Source of the DNA: a virus
Taxonomy: Duplodnaviria > Heunggongvirae > Uroviricota > Caudoviricetes
IMG/VR virus record: IMGVR_UViG_2778261459_000006
Length of the DNA: 10,942 nt
Strand: one strand, 5' to 3'
Shown: positions 495-10,263 of the stretch, in pieces
Numbering within the stretch: position 1 is the stretch's first letter
Layout: each line of letters begins with the position of its first letter
Program-made: the position numbers and the translations under genes
Notes under the pieces: generated by a model
The model's database searches: none
Told to the model about the DNA's origin: nothing
The model's input: the letters and a program-made list of their open reading frames with translations, nothing else

Positions 495-524
495 TTGTAA
501 GCCACTCAAAAGCAGGTTTACAAT
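495..524 (+). promoter_or_regulatory. Candidate sigma70 promoter for the alpA-like operon
   Basis: TTGTAA (495-500), 18-bp spacer, TACAAT (519-524). TTGTAA and TTACAA form an inverted pair 17 bp apart, a possible operator. Sequence match only. Confidence 0.35.
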
Positions 525-556: not shown

Positions 557-841
557 ATGAACGCAAACATTGAACAGCAAGTCATGACAATGAAAGACGT
601 CTGCAAACTGTTAAACCGCTCAAGAACGTCAGTTTACGTTGCCATGATGCGCTACCAGGATTTTCCGGAGCCTATGTCACGCGGTCACGGTGTGCGAATG
701 GTCTGGTTAAAGTCTGAGTTAATTGCCTGGTACGAGCAGCACAAGGACGAGCTCGAAGAATCACGGAAAAACGGAATGATCCCGAATGAAAAGGCGATGC
801 GGAAACAACAACAAAAAGAGGAAGTAGAAAATGCTAACTGA
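557..841 (+). CDS. AlpA-family (phage AlpA/Xis-like HTH) regulator, 94 aa
   Basis: ATG at 557 with GAGGA 8 nt upstream. The segment MKDVCKLLNRSRTSVYVAMMRYQDFPEP...WLKSELIAWYE fits the AlpA/excisionase-type HTH pattern by eye. Stop TGA overlaps the next start (ATGCTAACTGA). Confidence 0.75.
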   Translation: MNANIEQQVMTMKDVCKLLNRSRTSVYVAMMRYQDFPEPMSRGHGVRMVWLKSELIAWYEQHKDELEESRKNGMIPNEKAMRKQQQKEEVENAN

Positions 842-1841
842 TACGACTTTACTGCCCGGCCTTGATGATCCAGCACCGTGGGATGATTCCGGCGGAGAGC
901 AGAAAGAAAAACGCCCGGGTGGGAAAGACCAGGGCGATGAGATGGAATCTGATAATGACACCGAATCCAATACGAATATTATCGCAGCAGATGACGGAAA
1001 CATCAACGGCAATAGCGGTAAAAATTCGTCTGCCGTTGAGGAAATCAGAGCAACGAAACCAATAGACCACAGCCTATGGGGATTGCGCAGTTCAGCACGC
1101 AAACCAGTAGCGAAAGCAACCACGGAAGAGCCTAAAGACATGTGGGCGGAAATCCTGGAAGAGGAAGAAAACGAGCAAGCCACGCAGAGTAACCCAGCCG
1201 TCAATCAAAGCGATGATCGTGATGAATGGGTGAAAAAGATGAGCGCTCTTTCGAAACAGTTACGCAATAAAAACAGCGACGGTTGGAAACAATACGAAAG
1301 CGTGCCGCCTGTCGGGATTCAGGACGACATAAAGAAATCAGATTCAGGCATTGCAGTACGCGAGGGTAAGGAGTTCCGGCAGCGTGATGATCTGGTCATA
1401 GAATCGCGTGAAATAACGCGGCCAGAAGCGCCAGGAAGCAACGAAACGCATGAGGCTGAACAATCGCAAGGCCAGCAGGAAACAGTAAGCGAGAAGGCTG
1501 ATAAGGACTGGCGCGGCGGCGACTACTACAGCTATACGAGCGAAGGATGCGCGCATCGCGCCTTTGACCGGGCTATCAAGTATAAGAGTGACGATAAGAC
1601 ATACTGGCAGACAAAAGGGATTTTTCTGACCATCGCCAGTGCAGCACGCAGGAACAATGACGGGGAATGGGTGACTAAAATGACCATATCATCACTGACT
1701 GGCGACACTCACGGTAACGCGTCCAGGAAGATCAAGGGTTGGATAGAAAGACTGGAGAAAGCTGGCCTATTAATCCCGCTTGAGACGAGTAAGAGAGACG
1801 GGAGAGCGTGGAAAATGGGATTCACGGTCCATCGAGGTTAA
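831..1841 (+). CDS. Hypothetical 336-aa protein: long acidic low-complexity N-terminal region plus a C-terminal winged-helix-like domain; candidate iteron-binding replication protein
   Basis: ATG at 831 with GAGGAAG upstream, overlapping the alpA-like stop. N-terminal about 230 aa is rich in D/E/N/S/Q; the C-terminal about 100 aa (…GIFLTIASAARRNNDGEWVTKMTISSL…KIKGWIERLEKAGLLIPLE) looks like a DNA-binding winged helix. Sits directly upstream of the terminator and iterons. Function is inferred from position only. Confidence 0.7.
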   Translation: MLTDTTLLPGLDDPAPWDDSGGEQKEKRPGGKDQGDEMESDNDTESNTNIIAADDGNINGNSGKNSSAVEEIRATKPIDHSLWGLRSSARKPVAKATTEEPKDMWAEILEEEENEQATQSNPAVNQSDDRDEWVKKMSALSKQLRNKNSDGWKQYESVPPVGIQDDIKKSDSGIAVREGKEFRQRDDLVIESREITRPEAPGSNETHEAEQSQGQQETVSEKADKDWRGGDYYSYTSEGCAHRAFDRAIKYKSDDKTYWQTKGIFLTIASAARRNNDGEWVTKMTISSLTGDTHGNASRKIKGWIERLEKAGLLIPLETSKRDGRAWKMGFTVHRG

Positions 1842-1853
1842 ATCAGCAGCAAA

Positions 1854-1878
1854 GCCCGCCGCGTTGGCGGGTTTTTTG
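1854..1878 (+). terminator. Rho-independent terminator after the 336-aa gene
   Basis: Stem CCCGCC (1855-1860) / GGCGGG (1866-1871), loop GCGTT, then TTTTTT (1872-1877). Confidence 0.75.
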
Positions 1879-1933
1879 TGCCTGAACCGTAAACCAACCT
1901 ATCTCACTAATGGTTTACATGTGATGCGAAGCC

Positions 1934-1942
1934 TGTGGATAA
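1934..1942 (-). promoter_or_regulatory. DnaA box, perfect TTATCCACA consensus
   Basis: The + strand reads TGTGGATAA, the reverse complement of TTATCCACA. It lies 12 bp upstream of the iteron array. Confidence 0.6.
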
Positions 1943-1953
1943 CTCAAGATGAA

Positions 1954-2084
1954 CCATCAGTTTTGTACCCATATAAAAATCGAACCATCAGTTTTGTACC
2001 CATATACCATCAGTTTTGTACCCATATAACCATCTTTGAACCATCAGTTTTGTACCCATATACCATCAGTTTTGTACCCATATG
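1954..2084. repeat. Iteron array: five direct copies of the 22-bp unit CCATCAGTTTTGTACCCATATA; candidate plasmid-type replication origin
   Basis: Exact copies at 1954-1975, 1985-2006, 2007-2028 and 2041-2062; the copy at 2063-2084 ends in G. A truncated copy (CCATCTTTG) lies at 2030-2038. Flanked by a DnaA box upstream and an AT-rich tract downstream. Confidence 0.9.
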
Positions 2085-2130
2085 ATTCCCTGAGGGCCGC
2101 GCCGCATCTGGACTACGCCGCCCATTAAGA

Positions 2131-2200
2131 GGTTTTAAGAGAAAAAAAGATAAGAGTATTAAGATCAGGATATTTATTTTTCATAGATCTATGATTGGTG
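2131..2200. other. AT-rich tract next to the iterons; possible DNA-unwinding element
   Basis: AT-rich sequence including A7 and T5 runs and GATC sites, immediately after a GC-rich block (2093-2125). Confidence 0.35.
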
Positions 2201-2525
2201 ACCTTCGGAAAATCATCCGGGTATTGCTAGCTTGCTATTGGCCTGGCAGTGGGCCTACGGCTGGGAACTGGAGAACATGAAACGACGTAAGGCACGGAGC
2301 GCCCACCATAGGCAGACACATAAACATCTGAGAGCGCGCCTTCTATCGCGCTACGCGCTCAATAAAAACCAACGACACCGCCATCCTGAAAGACCAATGG
2401 TTTTATCTCGTATACAGACCAGACATGAAACAGCAGGCTGAAGTGAACACTCAAGCAAGTTTATCCCGCCGCAGACTACCGCAAACTATCATGACCGTGC
2501 AGAATTCGAACTGAATGCCCCCTAG

Positions 2526-2635
2526 AACGCGATGAACACACATACCCGCTACGATTGCATACCTTAAAATCTCACCTCACCACAGAGCGATTGAGACGCC
2601 TTAAAATTGATGCGATTTCGCTAAATTTTTTCACT
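2526..2635. repeat. Long imperfect direct repeat, copy A (about 110 bp)
   Basis: Aligns with 2836-2946; shared blocks AACGCGATNAACACACATA and TTAAAATNGATGCGATTTC..TAAATTTTTTCACT. Confidence 0.85.
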
Positions 2636-2674
2636 TGATGCAGAGCTGTATGCGTGAAGGACAGTTGCGTCCGC

Positions 2675-2735
2675 AACTTTCTTGTTCAAAACCCCAGCCA
2701 TCAAGCGTTGAGCCGAAACTTTCTTGTTCAAAACC
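2675..2735. repeat. Two perfect 19-bp direct repeats, AACTTTCTTGTTCAAAACC, 42 bp apart
   Basis: Copies at 2675-2693 and 2717-2735, lying between the two long direct repeats. Confidence 0.85.
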
Positions 2736-2835
2736 TGGCAAGCCTCACAACCTCCAACGGAGGAAGCTGGGTTAATCAGCTTGATTCTGAGCCGATTGCC
2801 AGCCGGACTACTGACCAGATACTGCCAGGCCATTC

Positions 2836-2946
2836 AACGCGATTAACACACATAAGCGCCACACTTACTTACCTGAAAACTTCACAGCGTCACAGCGCGT
2901 TTTAGACACGTTAAAATCGATGCGATTTCATTAAATTTTTTTCACT
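2836..2946. repeat. Long imperfect direct repeat, copy B (about 111 bp)
   Basis: Aligns with 2526-2635, 310 bp downstream of copy A; the 3' end contains the small palindrome AATCGATGCGATT. Confidence 0.85.
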
Positions 2947-3072
2947 CGCCTGAATGGTGGCAATCAGGACTGATTGCAACATTGCCCCGCCTCGATACTG
3001 AGCGCATAATAAATACATACATTAAGCGGAAACGTCATTAACAGATTTGGAAAAAACAATGGGTTAAACATC

Positions 3073-3693
3073 ATGCGCATATCAAAGCAGCAACGCCAAA
3101 TCCTCGACTATCTGGCAGAAAACGAATCAATCACAGCACGCCAGGCGGCAGATCTCGTTTATGGCGGCAACGTTACCCGCGTACAGGTCGATGCAGCCCG
3201 CCGTTCACTGATGGCGCTGGTCAGCAATGGGCTAATCATGAAACAAGGCCGCGCTTTCGTAGCTGAAAGACATATCAATCACGCTTATAGCCAGGACGTT
3301 GAAGAGTTGCGCCGTCAGATCCTTTGGGTATTCAGCAAAGAGGGGCAGGACTATCTCATTTCTGAGCGTCCAAATTACGCCGCCAAAGAGTTAACAGTAA
3401 GCGGATTGTCGTGCGCACTGGATTATCTTGTCGGTGAAGGTTGCGTTACTTACAAGCAGCTATGGCACGCCCTGAACACGCTTGTAGAAGATGGTTTACT
3501 CATTGCCACGCGTGAGAATATCGAATACTGGATAATGCCGCGTTCAGGTCGCCGCAATCATGCGCGGTATATTTCAGGCAACAAATACAGAACGCCTGAC
3601 TTTAATCCGACACAGGAAGATCGGGACCGTGCCGAAATGATGTGCAGGGAACGGGAGAAAAGATTCATGGACAAGTTGTTTTCGATGCGGTGA
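3073..3693 (+). CDS. 206-aa protein with two tandem winged-helix-like domains; candidate DNA-binding regulator or Rep-like protein
   Basis: ATG at 3073, stop TGA at 3691-3693, then a terminator. Segments QRQILDYLAENESITARQAADLV...LVSNGLIMKQGR and LSCALDYLVGEGCVTYKQLWHALNTLVEDGLLIA each look like a winged helix. Confidence 0.7.
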   Translation: MRISKQQRQILDYLAENESITARQAADLVYGGNVTRVQVDAARRSLMALVSNGLIMKQGRAFVAERHINHAYSQDVEELRRQILWVFSKEGQDYLISERPNYAAKELTVSGLSCALDYLVGEGCVTYKQLWHALNTLVEDGLLIATRENIEYWIMPRSGRRNHARYISGNKYRTPDFNPTQEDRDRAEMMCREREKRFMDKLFSMR

Positions 3694-4425: not shown

Positions 4426-5001
4426 ATGAGAAATGAAATCAAATATCAACATATCAAGCGTCTGTGGTGTCTAAAAGATGGCGTTATTTTTACGAGATGG
4501 GGCAATAAGCCTGTTTCTTTCTCCTGTAAAGTAAACGGGCGCCGCTATACAACGATTAAAGTTAACGGAAAATGGCACGCAGTTCTTATTTATGAAGCTA
4601 TTTTTATGCTGTTCCATGACCGCCCAATCGCTGAAGGAAAAGAAATCCACCACAAGGACGGCGATCCAGAAAATAACGCAATTGACAATCTTGTCGAGCT
4701 AACCAGAACGCAGCACAAGAGGATTCATCAATATCAGTGCAACGACCCGCTGCGCGGTATTTGCCTGAATCAAGGCGCATGGGAATTTAAATGGTATGAC
4801 GATAACGGAATATGCCGCAGCCGACGTTTCCACAGTATTAACGAGGCAATAAACTTCCGTGCCGAAATAGAAAAACCTCGCAGAAGAGAATTACGATTGC
4901 TAGGCTTGAACTGTCGTAAAAAATATCGCGGAATTACCGCAAGCCAACTACGCAAAATAAGCCGGAAGCAAAATTCTCGCTTATGGCGCACACACATTTA
5001 A
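4426..5001 (+). CDS. HNH endonuclease with an AP2-like DNA-binding domain, 191 aa
   Basis: HNH signature IHHKDGDPENNAIDNLVELTRTQHKRIH, then an AP2-like segment RGICLNQGAWEFKWYDDNGICRSRRFHSINEAINFRAEI. AAGGGA RBS upstream. Confidence 0.85.
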   Translation: MRNEIKYQHIKRLWCLKDGVIFTRWGNKPVSFSCKVNGRRYTTIKVNGKWHAVLIYEAIFMLFHDRPIAEGKEIHHKDGDPENNAIDNLVELTRTQHKRIHQYQCNDPLRGICLNQGAWEFKWYDDNGICRSRRFHSINEAINFRAEIEKPRRRELRLLGLNCRKKYRGITASQLRKISRKQNSRLWRTHI

Positions 5002-5302: not shown

Positions 5303-5998
5303 ATGAGCAAAACACAGGAAAGAATACACGAGCTTGAGGCTAAATATAGCCGCTTGCTGACTGAGCGTGACCATGCAACTGGCGCTGATCGCTATCTTGC
5401 GGAAAAAGAACTGAAAGCTACTCGTAAGATGATCATTAAGTTGCACGGTAAAAGCATTACAGAAGAGATACAGGGCCAAATACCTGACATGGTGAAACAT
5501 GCACTTGCTGGTGTAACTGCCCAGGTAACCGAACTGCGTAAACAAGCTGGCATGAAGGTTAATGCTGACGAAAAGCCGGACGAAACGCCAGACGAAAAGC
5601 CGCGTGATGAGCGTATCGCTGAGGCTTTGCATGTGGTTAAGAGCAATCTGCTTAACATGGAAATTGATGACCTCATCGACCTTCGGGATCGTGTCCTCAA
5701 GGCGGTTGAAAGTCGTAACCAGGCAGCAGAGCAAAACAAGCTGGCAGACATGACGGTTAACGCGAACCACGTCGGAGCACCGGACGCCGCCAGTTACTTT
5801 GACCCTAATCTGCCGAAAGAGATAGCTGACTACCTCGATCCGCCGTTGCCGCCAGAAATTGAAGCGCATTTCGCCGAAACGAAAACGGTCGCAGGGGTTG
5901 ACCTGGATTCATACTTTCAGGGCAACAATGAAGCGGCAGGGATTGATTTAGACGAATATTTCCTGCCAAGCAAGCACTACAGCGTAAGTAAAGACTGA
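5303..5998 (+). CDS. Hypothetical protein, 231 aa, with acidic C-terminal repeats
   Basis: GGGAGA RBS 7 nt upstream of the ATG. Short repeats DEKPDETPDEKP and DLD(S/E)YF / YFDPNLP / YLDPPLP. Followed by a terminator. No family recognised. Confidence 0.7.
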   Translation: MSKTQERIHELEAKYSRLLTERDHATGADRYLAEKELKATRKMIIKLHGKSITEEIQGQIPDMVKHALAGVTAQVTELRKQAGMKVNADEKPDETPDEKPRDERIAEALHVVKSNLLNMEIDDLIDLRDRVLKAVESRNQAAEQNKLADMTVNANHVGAPDAASYFDPNLPKEIADYLDPPLPPEIEAHFAETKTVAGVDLDSYFQGNNEAAGIDLDEYFLPSKHYSVSKD

Positions 5999-6375: not shown

Positions 6376-6458
6376 CCGTTTTTTGAAGTTAGTTTTCAAT
6401 GCTAAAACCGCCGAAATCCGCGCCATACGGGTTTTTGCACTATATGAGGGGCGCTTTT

Positions 6459-6722
6459 ATGGGGGTAATTTTCGGACAAGTACTATGCGCGCGCGAGGCA
6501 ATCATGAAGCAAGACATAGCGGAAAGGCTGGAGATACTCGAAAACCAGCGAGAAGAAGCCAGACAGATGCGCAGGGAGGCAAATAAAGAGGGCCGGAAAA
6601 AAGATGCATGGCATCTGAGACAATTCATCAACTTTACAAACCGTTGCATCCAGGAGTGCTACATGGAAGACGCAGAAAACTGGCTGGATTCCTTGCCAGA
6701 AAAGCACGGAACAGAGCGATGA
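6459..6722 (+). CDS. Hypothetical protein, 87 aa from the RBS-supported ATG at 6459 (the ORF track starts it at 6399; 6504 is another possible start)
   Basis: GAGGGG 7 nt upstream of ATG 6459. The protein is charged and helical (…IAERLEILENQREEARQMRREANKEGRKK…). Stop TGA at 6720-6722, in the same frame as the next ORF. Confidence 0.45.
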   Translation: MGVIFGQVLCAREAIMKQDIAERLEILENQREEARQMRREANKEGRKKDAWHLRQFINFTNRCIQECYMEDAENWLDSLPEKHGTER

Positions 6723-6743
6723 TTGTTAGACGAAGGGGGTTAC

Positions 6744-7184
6744 ATGCCGATGAGACACCAGGCTGTCATTGAGCAGATCAAGCGGCAGCTAAGGGAAGAA
6801 ATCAAAGAGATTAGCAAGGACGCGGCGACAGCCGCATATGAGATCGCTATCACTGCCGAAGGCTATGCGGTAGCAGATACACCGAGAGACACGGGCACAC
6901 TTATAAACGGCTATTACATCAATATTGACGAAAATCCTGATGGTGCGCACGCCACTTTAGGTAATACGGAACGCTATGCGTATTGGGTTCATGAAATGCC
7001 GGGGATACTGAAAGGTCAACCGCGCGAACATTTCGGGAAGACAAGGGAAGGCGTTGCCTTTGGTGGCGGTACTGAAAAGGGTTGCTATTGGGATCCTGAT
7101 GCAAGGCCCAAATTCCTTGAGCTTGCGCTCGATGAGCATTACGACGAGTTTATGGATATAGCACGCAAATATTTAAAGCGATGA
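6744..7184 (+). CDS. HK97 gp10-like protein (tail completion / head-tail joining family), about 146 aa
   Basis: Motifs PRDTGTL, YAYWVHE and ARPKFLELAL fit the HK97 gp10-like pattern as I recall it. The ORF-track start at 6723 is a TTG; the ATG at 6744 follows a GAAGGGGG RBS. Confidence 0.6.
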   Translation: MPMRHQAVIEQIKRQLREEIKEISKDAATAAYEIAITAEGYAVADTPRDTGTLINGYYINIDENPDGAHATLGNTERYAYWVHEMPGILKGQPREHFGKTREGVAFGGGTEKGCYWDPDARPKFLELALDEHYDEFMDIARKYLKR

Positions 7185-7193
7185 GGTGAGATC

Positions 7194-9374
7194 ATGGGTG
7201 AACAGGTCGGAAGCCTTCAGATAGATATTGACCTGAAGACAAAAAATTTATTGGTAAGCCAAAACCAGGCTGAAAACGCGCTTGATAATATTGGCAATAA
7301 AATCAGCGGTGTGGAACGCAAAACAAAGACCTTTAACACGCAGTTAACTAAAACATCTGCCGCAGTCAAAAGCAGCCTTTCCCCGGCAATTCGCAACGCA
7401 TCGTTTCAGATCGCGGATTTAGCTACCCAATTGCAGATGGGCGGTAATGCTCTGGCGGCATTTGCCGTTCAGGGCGCACAGTTATTAGCTGGCTTTGGCA
7501 CGATGGGCGCGGTAGCTGGCGCGGTGCTGGCTATAGCTGGCGCTATGGGTGGAAGCCTGGCACAAGGCGCTGATAGTGCAGCCGGATCGGTTGAGTACCT
7601 GGACAAGGCGATCACCAAACTGAACGAGGTCATAGCTGTAAATGAGCAGGGCGTGACGGTGATGACTGATAGTTACGCCAATCTTTCTAAGGTTAACGCT
7701 GAAGTAGCGAAACAGATGCGGAACATGGCTGAAATTCAGGCAATTGCAGCACTGCGTGACCTGAAAGAACAGGCAAGCCAGGCACAGGGGGAAATGTCAT
7801 CATTCTGGCGTAGCTTGCAGGGCGGTAAAGCTGACGCAGCAGCAGCAGCACAGGCACTTGATGACCTGGGAATCACGACCAACGACTATAAAGAAGCGAT
7901 CGCCACACTTAACGCCAATCAGCCGGATACACAGGCGCAGATGGCGACGCTGGCTAAATCCGTGATGTATGTTGGCGAAGAATACGATCTGACCAATCAG
8001 CAAGCCTACGAATTCATCCGGGCGCTGAATAAGGCCGCGACAACGAAAACACCGGAAGCAATGCAGGAGCTATCTGGCTTCATGCAGGTATTGCTACAGG
8101 ACACAGAAAACGGTAACGAGGCATTCAGGGAACTGGCTATCAAATTCGTTGATGCACAAACCAAAGGCGCAATGCTGGAAGACCAACTAAACCGACTGAA
8201 AGGCGCTATCAGTGACGCAGCCACAGAAGCCAGAAACGCCAATTTTACCACTATGCTCAACACCGTCGCCGCACGCCTGGCAGCCATTGAGCAAGGTTGG
8301 GAGGCAGGTGTCAGGATGCAGATGAAAGCCCAGGGCTACACTGAAGAGCAGATCGATGAATATGTGAACATGGAAACGGCGTACAGGGATGCAAAAGCCG
8401 CTTTGGACGAGAAGAACAAGGCCGACCGTGAAGCAATTGCGCTATCCAAACGCCAGGCCGCAGAAGCCGCCCGCAAGGCAAAACAGGAAGAAGCTGAAGC
8501 ACAACGCAAGGCCAAACAGTTAGCGGCGCAGAAAGAACAGGCCGGACGCTTTACGCAGCAGGTGATGACGGAATATCAAACGACCGTGGATCCGGCAACA
8601 GGCCAGGCGTTGAACCCTGCCGCACAAGTGGAAATGCAGGAGCAGCAGAAGAAAACGGCATTAGATAAATACAGGCAGTTGGGTGTTTTGGGTGAGCAGG
8701 AGTATCAGAACACGCTAACAGCCATCCAGAAAACTGCATCAATGCGCCGCCAGCAAATCATCAAAGACGAGGCTGACACGTTATTCAACAATCAGCAGCA
8801 GTTGATCGGCACATTTGGCGATTTCTTCGGTGAACTGTCTGGAGTCATAGCAGACGGCGCGGGTGAGCAAAATGCGGCATATCAAGCGCTATTTGCTGTG
8901 CAGAAGGGGTTTGTATTGGCGTCGGCAGCTTTAAGCCTTCAAAAAGCGCTGGCAGAGGCAAACGCCTTACCTTTCCCGGCTAACCTTCCGGCCTATGCGC
9001 AAGCGATGTCAGCAGGTACGCAGATCATTTCAGCTATTCGTGGAATAGCTTTCGGTGGCGGACGCTACAACGGCGGCGCGGTTGGTGCTGGCAACCTGTA
9101 CCGCGTGGGTGAACACGGTAAGCCTGAGATATTCAAGGCGAACAATGGCAGCCAGTACATGATCCCAGGTGATAACGGTCGCGTGATAAGTAATCGTGAC
9201 ATTGGCGGCGGTGGCGGCGTAACAATCAACAGCCCGATCACCATTAACACTACGAATGGCTTCAGTGATGAAGACTCAAGGCGTCTTGAGGAAGCGATGA
9301 AGCGCGTAGCTATGGGCGTTTGCAGGCAGGAGTCAACCAGACCGGGAGGAATGTTAGCCCCGCGCCGCCGTTAA
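7194..9374 (+). CDS. Phage tail tape measure protein, lambda gpH-like, 726 aa
   Basis: N-terminus MGEQVGSLQIDIDLK, then a Gly/Ala-rich hydrophobic segment (…AAFAVQGAQLLAGFGTMGAVAGAVLAIAGAMGG…), a K/A/E/Q-rich helical region and a glycine-rich C-terminus with GNLYRVGEHGKPEIF. This resembles lambda-H-family proteins by eye. Confidence 0.8.
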   Translation: MGEQVGSLQIDIDLKTKNLLVSQNQAENALDNIGNKISGVERKTKTFNTQLTKTSAAVKSSLSPAIRNASFQIADLATQLQMGGNALAAFAVQGAQLLAGFGTMGAVAGAVLAIAGAMGGSLAQGADSAAGSVEYLDKAITKLNEVIAVNEQGVTVMTDSYANLSKVNAEVAKQMRNMAEIQAIAALRDLKEQASQAQGEMSSFWRSLQGGKADAAAAAQALDDLGITTNDYKEAIATLNANQPDTQAQMATLAKSVMYVGEEYDLTNQQAYEFIRALNKAATTKTPEAMQELSGFMQVLLQDTENGNEAFRELAIKFVDAQTKGAMLEDQLNRLKGAISDAATEARNANFTTMLNTVAARLAAIEQGWEAGVRMQMKAQGYTEEQIDEYVNMETAYRDAKAALDEKNKADREAIALSKRQAAEAARKAKQEEAEAQRKAKQLAAQKEQAGRFTQQVMTEYQTTVDPATGQALNPAAQVEMQEQQKKTALDKYRQLGVLGEQEYQNTLTAIQKTASMRRQQIIKDEADTLFNNQQQLIGTFGDFFGELSGVIADGAGEQNAAYQALFAVQKGFVLASAALSLQKALAEANALPFPANLPAYAQAMSAGTQIISAIRGIAFGGGRYNGGAVGAGNLYRVGEHGKPEIFKANNGSQYMIPGDNGRVISNRDIGGGGGVTINSPITINTTNGFSDEDSRRLEEAMKRVAMGVCRQESTRPGGMLAPRRR

Positions 9375-9636
9375 CCAACTCCCACGCCAGGGGGATAGAC
9401 TGGCGGACCCTTCACGCTCCTACGCAAAAATTCCCTCACAATCGCCCTGTCAATTTTTCAGATTTCACCAGAACGCGCCTGAAACAGCCTTCCCACATCC
9501 TTGATATTCCGTACGCCCTGCTAAAAGCGTGATCTGCGACAAAAATTGTACTTTTTGCCGTTGATTCGGGGTCTGTATGGGAATAATCTCACAATCAAAG
9601 AGAGGTAAGGGTATTTGGGAAATGGAGGAAAGTATC

Positions 9637-10263
9637 ATGGCTAACGCAGCTTATATTCGTGTTTCTACTATCGCTCAGGATACATTGCGCCAACGCGAGG
9701 CTATCGCTAACACTGGCATGAAGTTTGAGAAAATCGTTGAAGAGAAAAGGTCAGGTAAAGACCTCGATCGCCCGGCACTGCGGGAGCTATGCGGCTGGTT
9801 ACGTGAAGGTGACGACCTGTACGTCGCATCAATTGACCGCCTGGGGCGCAAACTGACTGATGTAATGGGCGTGGTTGATGAACTGCGGCAGAAAGGGGTT
9901 CGGGTCCACTTTCTGAAAGAAGGGCAGATCATCGGTGGCGAGATGAACGCGGTTCAGGAGTTCTTTATTCAGCTCATGGCAGCAGCCGCGCAGATGGAAC
10001 GTAGCTTTATGCTTGAACGCCAGAAAGAGGCGAACGAAGCCAGGAGGGCGGCAGGGAAACCGGTTGGGCGTGGGCTGGCACCGAAGATTAAGCAGCAGCT
10101 GCCGTACATCCTCAAGGACATGGAACAACGCAAGGAGTCCATGAGCGACCTTTGCCGCAAATACAAAGTGGCGCGAAGCACAATGTACCGGATCCGCGAC
10201 AACGCCATTCGTGACGGGAAGCTGCCGGAAATTGTGAAGGTCAAAAAGGTCGTCATCAACTAA
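9637..10263 (+). CDS. Small serine recombinase (resolvase/invertase family), 208 aa
   Basis: N-terminal catalytic pattern AYIRVSTIAQ...SGKDLDRPALREL...GDDLYVASIDRLGRKL...GVRVHFL and a C-terminal HTH (ARSTMYRIR). GGAGGA 7 nt upstream of ATG 9637; the ORF-track start at 9577 is probably too far upstream. Confidence 0.9.
   Translation: MANAAYIRVSTIAQDTLRQREAIANTGMKFEKIVEEKRSGKDLDRPALRELCGWLREGDDLYVASIDRLGRKLTDVMGVVDELRQKGVRVHFLKEGQIIGGEMNAVQEFFIQLMAAAAQMERSFMLERQKEANEARRAAGKPVGRGLAPKIKQQLPYILKDMEQRKESMSDLCRKYKVARSTMYRIRDNAIRDGKLPEIVKVKKVVIN

Follow-up and report, generated by a model that had tools for sequence, protein, structure and literature searches.

What does a long acidic region do at the front of a protein that otherwise resembles a replication initiator? 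The question is raised by an open reading frame (ORF), rep, at positions 831–1841 (plus strand, stop included; 336 aa according to the ORF listing) of a 10,942-nucleotide stretch of DNA, here called the window, which is the viral record IMGVR_UViG_2778261459_000006 of IMG/VR and represents the complete contig NNVN01000081.1 (GCA_002485715.1). The initial annotation, made from the letters alone, presented the product as a candidate Rep protein in which some 230 acidic residues precede a compact DNA-binding domain, and suggested that the acidic part may mimic DNA in the manner of Ocr or ArdA, or serve as an interaction hub. We consider it probable, with somewhat better than even confidence, that this ORF encodes the modular replication initiator of a small circular Escherichia coli element, in which an exchangeable DNA-binding end is joined to a constant N-terminal half (N-half) with an effector role. 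For the acidic front half, the recruitment or regulation of partners is more likely than mimicry of DNA.

The designation as a Rep finds strong support in the DNA that follows the gene and in the way this DNA changes among relatives. Five exact copies of a 21-bp iteron, ACCATCAGTTTTGTACCCATA, lie at 1953–2082 on the plus strand with start-to-start spacings of 31, 22, 34 and 22 bp; they begin 112 bp past the rep stop, and 0.00 matches are expected by chance from shuffled sequences. The iterons are flanked on one side by a perfect DnaA box, of which the window has no other (TGTGGATAA, 1934–1942), and on the other by a 69-bp A+T-rich stretch with a G+C content (GC) of 23% and two GATC sites (2127–2195), which also contains the 60-nt interval of lowest GC in 1842–3070 (0.20 at 2133) and would act as the DNA-unwinding element. 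Gene and origin are separated by an intrinsic terminator (1854–1877, plus strand), GCCCGCC-GCGTT-GGCGGG followed by TTTTTT, which was absent from the pattern-scan output and was identified by direct reading of the sequence. Such a layout would be that of a classical theta-type, iteron-controlled origin. Perfect DnaA boxes also stand beside the iterons of L002, L004, L014 to L017, L020 and the 8-kb plasmid L011.

Beyond the origin, about 1 kb of non-coding DNA (2100–3070) extends to the next gene. Within it lie a 106-nt direct repeat (2526–2631 and 2836–2941, 78% identical) and a 23-nt repeat (2671–2693 and 2713–2735), and parts of it are kept in relatives and in the 9-kb plasmid CP057168.1 (2746–2836). 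No Rfam match was found in this stretch or anywhere else in the window.

The relatives reveal how the two ends of the protein behave in evolution. Homologous proteins form 63 clusters, mostly from E. coli and encoded on contigs of about 10–12 kb, and at least six unrelated types of winged helix (A to F) are joined in them to a shared N-half. Identity of the winged helix (residues 237–336) reaches 87.5% within a type versus 22.6% between types, whereas residues 1–63 and a mini-domain at residues 150–196 remain about 75–85% identical regardless of the C-terminal type. The intervening linker (residues 197–236) is 85% identical within types versus 39% between them, and it looks like a recombination joint, since homology between types stops within this low-complexity segment.

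Each of the five types (out of six) for which downstream sequence is available has its own iteron; type F contigs stop short of the origin, and the iteron comparison covers types A to E. The iteron of type A, the type present in the window, is the one given above, and its counterparts are CATGTACCATCACAGATAGTACATG in type B, CCCCCACCAAAAATGGGCTA in type C (identical in two independent loci, L004 and L020), ACCTATGCCCCTGAGGAATAAC in type D and CCCCTAATGCATACAT in type E. Within type A, three sub-variants (L001, L013 and L014) differ in the predicted recognition-helix region, and their iterons vary in the 5′ half, with copy number and spacing unchanged. Judged by sequence, the winged-helix type tracks the iteron sequence, and the specificity of each Rep appears to match its own iterons.

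The only more distant relative is found on the 8-kb E. coli plasmid NZ_CP062859.1, where the homolog is the sole Rep candidate. This 195-aa protein aligns from residue 150 onwards (28% identity, E-value 1e-14) and is made of a variant mini-domain that a short linker connects to a type-A-like winged helix, with just 29 residues, non-acidic ones, ahead of the mini-domain; its gene is followed by iterons of its own and two DnaA boxes. From this architecture, the minimal unit would thus be mini-domain, linker and winged helix, and the acidic extension, which the plasmid protein lacks, would be a lineage-specific addition. Two 190-aa "short Reps" (P0062 and P0063) were also considered as natural forms without the N-terminus. 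This was rejected for P0062, a start-codon miscall, as the full ORF is in frame at locus L020; P0063 begins with the equivalent methionine, and we take it to be a miscall likewise.

The C-terminal domain itself, encoded at 1539–1838 (plus strand), is predicted to be a basic winged-helix DNA-binding domain. In the AlphaFold2 model it is folded over residues 237–330, with a predicted local distance difference test score (pLDDT) of about 80 and the order of helices and strands typical of a winged helix. Against the Pfam family HTH_36 (PF13730) it scores 16.5 bits (E-value 0.007) for a cut-off of 25 bits, a threshold exceeded by the type C relative P0026 (35.4 bits), and another faint match, to phage_O_Nterm (E-value 0.07), was seen in one relative. 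When the full model was compared with the PDB using Foldseek, the top matches were all winged-helix proteins and none was significant (E-value at least 0.027); they include TubR, which ranks first with an E-value of 0.027, and the staphylococcal RepA_N initiators 4pql and 5kbj. The compact DNA-binding domain proposed by the initial annotation is therefore backed by model confidence, a weak HTH_36 similarity and the nature of the structural matches. Its suggestion of a remote homology search with the C-terminus yielded that weak similarity, but neither a significant fold match nor a sequence match in the PDB, which was searched with both halves.

Composition separates the two parts of the protein as had been described, an acidic and polar N-terminal part and a basic C-terminal one. 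Residues 1–230 contain 22% D+E and 13% K+R (net charge −21, isoelectric point 4.5) and 43% D/E/N/S/Q, versus 11%, 18%, +7, 9.7 and 23%, respectively, for residues 231–336; D/E/N/S/Q content in the remaining ORFs of the window ranges from 19 to 35%. "Highly acidic" nevertheless overstates the case, given that 13% of the residues in the N-terminal region are basic. Furthermore, the notion of an acidic region of about 230 residues stands as regards composition but not as regards uniformity, as charge varies along it and residues 150–196 are folded and conserved. The N-terminal part (residues 1–236) has a net charge of about −22, or −0.09 per residue overall, which is distributed as −0.19 in residues 1–63 (net −12), −0.06 in 64–127, about 0 in 128–196 and −0.125 in the linker 197–236, compared with +0.08 (net +8) in the winged helix. 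In each of the 60 long family members, the stretch preceding the mini-domain carries a net negative charge, from −0.05 to −0.19 per residue. A Uversky charge-hydropathy plot was uninformative, as even the winged helix fell on its "disordered" side. The element encodes a second acidic protein at 5303–5998 (231 aa, 19% D+E, net −14, isoelectric point 5.0), which contains a PDETPDEKPRDE stretch and has no family match.

The N-half was divided into segments using an alignment of 58 family members, the AlphaFold2 model together with a sub-model, and rough estimates per segment of the ratio of non-synonymous to synonymous substitution rates (dN/dS), calculated by the Nei-Gojobori method on 13 coding sequences from family contigs. 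All segments lie on the plus strand. Residues 1–63 (831–1019) are acidic and predicted to be disordered (pLDDT <50), with a dN/dS of 0.34 and near-invariant positions at P9, P16, W17, D19, S20, E39, S46, I50, D54, N57 and N59. The following residues 64–127 (1020–1211) form a spacer, also predicted to be disordered (pLDDT <50), that is optional, being missing from many homologs (P0009–P0015 and P0054–P0058), and has a dN/dS of 0.95. Residues 128–149 (1212–1277; dN/dS 0.83) correspond to an amphipathic helix, modeled over 128–147 with low confidence in the full model and a pLDDT of about 70 in the sub-model, which exists as two sequence alleles across the family, EWVKKMSALSKQLRNK and DFAQKMIAIAKRKRAA. 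The Q/E-rich linker (1419–1538) is again predicted to be disordered (pLDDT <50), with a dN/dS of 0.28 within type, and the winged helix has a within-type value of 0.22. Residues 1–63 and 150–196 are thus under purifying selection and residues 64–127 are near-neutral. The structure prediction proposed along with the initial annotation therefore gives disorder at 1–127 and 197–236 and folded parts at 150–196 and 237–330.

The mini-domain (1278–1418), with its pLDDT of 70–89 and dN/dS of 0.21, is the best-conserved part of the protein. Its approximately 47 residues, DGWKQxESVPPVGI...SGIAVREGKEFRQRDDLVIESRE, are predicted to form one helix and a three-stranded sheet. It is an orphan: no sequence or fold relatives were found outside the family, Foldseek gave no significant match for residues 126–200, and a profile of the same residues, searched against 1.84 billion representative proteins, retrieved only family members, the variant P0064 and two spurious repeat proteins. 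Two homologs, P0045 and P0064, have differing N-halves made of a polar stretch of about 50 aa and a variant mini-domain (NDGWELV...YQGYLWRKTEDGWGYERK), the mini-domain of P0061 carries an insertion, and the DGW motif is retained in P0045, P0064, P0061 and P0060. Since some homologs differ in their N-halves, this half is exchangeable too, far less often than the winged helix.

From the anatomy of the protein, its pattern of conservation and the tracking of iterons by type, all of which are observed, we infer DNA binding as well as every function that we propose for the N-half. The winged helix would be the specificity module, most likely binding the five 21-bp iterons, and residues 1–236 would constitute a constant effector or regulatory module. 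Within the latter, the mini-domain, along with the helix before it, most likely makes a protein–protein contact, which could be the recruitment of the host helicase, of DnaA or of the clamp, or self-association of Rep. The short motifs conserved in the acidic residues 1–63 probably serve to bind a partner or to adjust the activity of Rep, whereas residues 64–127 and the Q/E-rich linker would be flexible spacers, the linker possibly doubling as the joint for the exchange of winged-helix cassettes between elements. No helicase, primase or loader domain was detected in the ORFs of the element using Pfam and PHROG, so that host machinery must be recruited. The interaction hub evoked by the initial annotation is plausible by analogy with TrfA, and fits better than mimicry because it is the DNA-binding end that is swapped and the N-half that stays constant, and because residues 1–63 and 150–196 are under purifying selection in an element that brings no replisome genes. 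The possibility that the very start of the protein (TSLLPGL, compared with QLSLPL in Hda) holds a beta-clamp motif was considered and left aside as unsupported, because it lacks the Gln and its last position varies (L/F/M/Q/P) across the family.

Charge could also be at work if residues 1–127 and 197–236 folded back as an acidic tail on the basic winged helix and competed with non-specific DNA, which would sharpen iteron specificity or hold Rep inactive until remodelled. Acidic tails act in this way in HMGB1 and T7 gp2.5, and the role would be compatible with a modular initiator. The opposite charges of the two parts (net −22 and +8), the negative charge ahead of the mini-domain in all 60 long members and the predicted disorder, which would allow the tail to reach the C-terminal domain, are in line with it. 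We nonetheless rate it as unlikely, as the density of charge is modest, no acidic extension is needed by the short plasmid Rep, and residues 1–63 are conserved in sequence and not just in charge (dN/dS 0.34, invariant P, W, D and S), which suggests motif recognition. The disordered N-terminus might also be a regulatory handle read by chaperones or AAA+ proteases (DnaK/DnaJ, ClpXP, ClpAP or Lon) that would set the monomer/dimer state or half-life of Rep, and hence copy number. Control of this kind is known for P1 RepA, TrfA and lambda O, and is typical of iteron Reps; moreover, the extreme N-terminus (MLTDTSLLPGL...) is conserved and lies in a disordered, accessible region. However, no N-terminal motif for ClpX or ClpA was recognised by eye (no systematic scan was made) and the conserved mini-domain would be left unexplained, which makes this explanation distinctly unlikely. 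An acidic tail and a regulatory handle could operate side by side.

Mimicry of DNA, by which the acidic region would keep restriction or another DNA-targeting defence away from the element itself or from a co-resident phage, appears highly improbable. What speaks for it is composition, residues 1–63 approaching Ocr with −0.19 per residue, and the benefit that anti-restriction would bring to a satellite-like element entering as naked DNA. In known DNA mimics the carboxylates form a rigid, folded array, and T7 Ocr carries a net charge of about −0.24 per residue, as compared to −0.09 for the whole region here, of which 13% is basic. Residues 1–127 and 197–236 are instead predicted to be disordered (pLDDT <50) and offer no folded surface shaped like DNA; no PDB chain (at E-values up to 10) or Pfam family matches; the middle part (64–127) is dispensable and evolves neutrally; and the distant plasmid Rep has no acidic extension. 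In addition, the region is fused to a protein that would have to be located at the origin and is encoded in a replication operon rather than in a leading or early region. The comparison with Ocr and ArdA thus failed on homology, predicted structure, charge density and the lack of the extension in a related Rep; mimicry would matter more if it were true, and nothing found supports it. Finally, the protein might be a transcription regulator or a partition-type DNA-binding protein with the repeats as operator or centromere, since repressors and centromere-binding proteins, among them the top Foldseek match TubR, also feature winged helices and direct repeats. This, too, has very little to recommend it, since the repeats of many independent relatives are likewise bordered by a perfect DnaA box and by A+T-rich DNA, the circular element has no other replication gene, no gene for a partition nucleoside triphosphatase (NTPase) adjoins, and the 8-kb plasmid has this module as its only Rep candidate.

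A modular initiator of this kind shares features with several known systems and differs from each of them. TrfA's N-terminal region is not notably acidic. As in the Rep described here, TrfA of RK2/RP4 (TrfA-44 and TrfA-33) is an iteron initiator with a long N-terminal region ahead of DNA-binding winged helices, acting on an origin of the theta type in which DnaA boxes accompany an AT-rich region. It comprises WH1, WH2 and an extra helical DNA-binding domain, whereas the present Rep contains just one winged helix, at its C-terminus, together with an unrelated mini-domain; the two share no sequence similarity, and a QLSLF-type motif is not obvious here. In RK2 TrfA, the long N-region, once predicted to be disordered, carries the QLSLF clamp-binding motif and has been linked to DnaB contacts (PMC8034659). 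Rep_3 initiators (F RepE, pPS10 RepA, R6K pi and pSC101 RepA) are likewise encoded next to an origin with repeats, a DnaA box and an AT-rich stretch, and specificity is carried by a winged helix. They possess a WH1-WH2 pair where the AlphaFold2 model shows one winged helix, and neither the domain order nor the acidic extension has a counterpart among them; membership of Rep_3 (PF01051) thus failed on the single winged helix and on the absence of a sequence match.

Satellites offer another parallel. In Staphylococcus aureus pathogenicity islands (SaPI) and other phage-inducible chromosomal islands (PICI), the C-terminal specificity region of Rep is matched to downstream iterons, and modules differ between similar elements. 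As here, a replication protein of a satellite-like element has its iterons just downstream, but SaPI Rep is a helicase with a primase, while the present protein has no helicase or AAA match in Pfam and no GxxxxGK[ST] Walker A motif was found on inspection. Without an NTPase motif in Rep, a helicase has to be supplied by the host or by a helper. In lambda O and HTH_36-type phage initiators, origin repeats are read by a single winged helix, there of the HTH_36/phage_O_Nterm kind, and a separate region of lambda O recruits the helicase loader; the DNA-binding domain is N-terminal in lambda O and C-terminal here, where no P-like loader gene is present. With Ocr and ArdA, the protein shares an acidic excess within a mobile-element protein, without homology, and differs from them in its predicted disorder, its far lower charge density and its being part of a larger DNA-binding protein.

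Several points weigh against the modular initiator as we describe it. In Pfam, the window protein has a winged helix that falls short of the threshold, and low pLDDT may partly reflect a shallow alignment of close relatives. The dN/dS values are pooled over non-independent pairs of the 13 sequences. As the mini-domain has neither a sequence nor a fold relative, the role that we infer for it is purely that, and the sequence names no partner for the N-half. The constancy of this half could merely reflect the recent kinship of the elements, an explanation against which a synonymous divergence of 0.25–0.54 argues. Finally, type D and E relatives carry a second winged-helix ORF between rep and the iterons, so that the identity of the iteron-reading protein is uncertain for these two types.

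These extra ORFs (9719–10009 in L018, 10969–11538 in L007 and 7954–8484 in L017) overlap the rep stop and are stand-alone winged-helix cassettes devoid of the N-half. That of L018 is a type-C-like domain of 96 aa, and that of L007 is a fusion of type B and type C domains totalling 189 aa. They could be relics of cassette exchange or regulators.

In the window, rep is the second gene of a pair. It is preceded by the Shine-Dalgarno sequence GAGGA, and there is an overlap between its ATG and the stop of an upstream gene (ATGCTAACTGA) located at 557–841 (plus strand), which encodes a small, AlpA/HTH_17-like DNA-binding protein of 94 aa. This protein matches Pfam HTH_17 (E-value 1.1e-6), weakly Phage_AlpA, and excisionase/regulator families in PHROG; a 94-aa alpA-like gene with the identical overlap, its length kept, is found 5′ of rep in relatives. 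Upstream of the pair, a consensus scan alone identified a sigma-70-like promoter candidate (TTGTAA-18-TACAAT, 495–524, plus strand, 9/12 positions), just preceded by a terminator-like hairpin at 450–474. Directly upstream of the operon, the gene spanning the contig junction (10518–10942 and 1–408) encodes an XRE-like helix-turn-helix N-terminus, a coiled-coil middle part and a C-terminal domain, and holds an internal near-repeat, NKIDIVDKPVNQQ/NKSDIVDKPVNQQ. The repressor of the element is probably encoded by this gene.

Because the first and last 77 bases of the contig are identical, the element is a circular molecule of 10,865 bp. In addition to the replication region, it encodes an HNH endonuclease (4426–5001), an ORF in the position of a small terminase (6399–6722), whose positional equivalents in relatives match PF20901 Sf6_terminase, a gp10/tail-completion-like gene (6723–7184), a tape measure protein of 726 aa (7194–9374; PHROG 1538, E-value 3e-100), and a serine recombinase/resolvase (9577–10263) that is 91% identical to that of the 8-kb plasmid NZ_CP062859.1. 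There are no capsid, portal or large terminase genes on the contig, and the element looks like a plasmid-borne phage satellite. A 206-aa ORF at 3073–3693, conserved in the relative L016 (8406–9026), exhibits a weak N-terminal winged-helix signal (HTH_24/HTH_39; Ren-like PHROG 142). E. coli chromosomes carry mosaic relatives of the morphogenesis genes, located at the intZ/eut (CPZ-55) site (L010, NZ_CP127252.1), where they adjoin a tyrosine integrase and lack this rep. Partial matches were found in 262 of 5,426 complete genomes.

In Pfam, PHROG and NCBIfam, no family was found above threshold for the whole Rep or its parts: Pfam returned nothing for the whole protein at E-values up to 0.1, no Rep_3 for its parts at E-values up to 10, and no family for residues 1–127 or 126–200. 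The homology search thus did not turn the protein into a standard representative of some known family whose N-terminal domain is structured. Searching by tblastn gave nothing in phages and only the 8-kb plasmid pair in plasmids, and blastn of the alpA-rep-ori region against 5,426 complete E. coli genomes gave no match. The DNA of this region was likewise without match in the phage collection and in IMG/VR, and without relatives in 185,579 GTDB representative genomes; three related loci were found in JGI metagenomes. No description of the element or of the protein was found in the literature searched. Judging from these searches, the Rep family is very rare and essentially confined to E. coli.

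An additional role might be superimposed on replication, the conserved acidic N-terminus (residues 1–63), along with the mini-domain, enabling Rep to bind a helper-phage or host-defence protein as well, by way of its disordered acidic motifs. Such a dual-purpose satellite Rep could sense the helper, hijack its replisome or block a DNA-binding defence enzyme. We regard it as a long shot, very unlikely on present grounds; if true, it would couple the replication of the satellite to infection or to counter-defence.

If the protein is indeed a modular initiator, it would represent an uncatalogued architecture among iteron initiators, in which one exchangeable winged helix is combined with a constant effector half. 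The winged helix would set the specificity of the origin and hence probably incompatibility, so that the joint swap of DNA-binding cassette and iterons would provide a model for escape from incompatibility. The family would also be a compact natural system for understanding the recruitment of the E. coli replisome by a minimal Rep. On the practical side, rep may serve as a replicon marker for the rare circular E. coli elements of about 11 kb that carry phage-tail and packaging genes and that current schemes for the typing of plasmids and phages lack.

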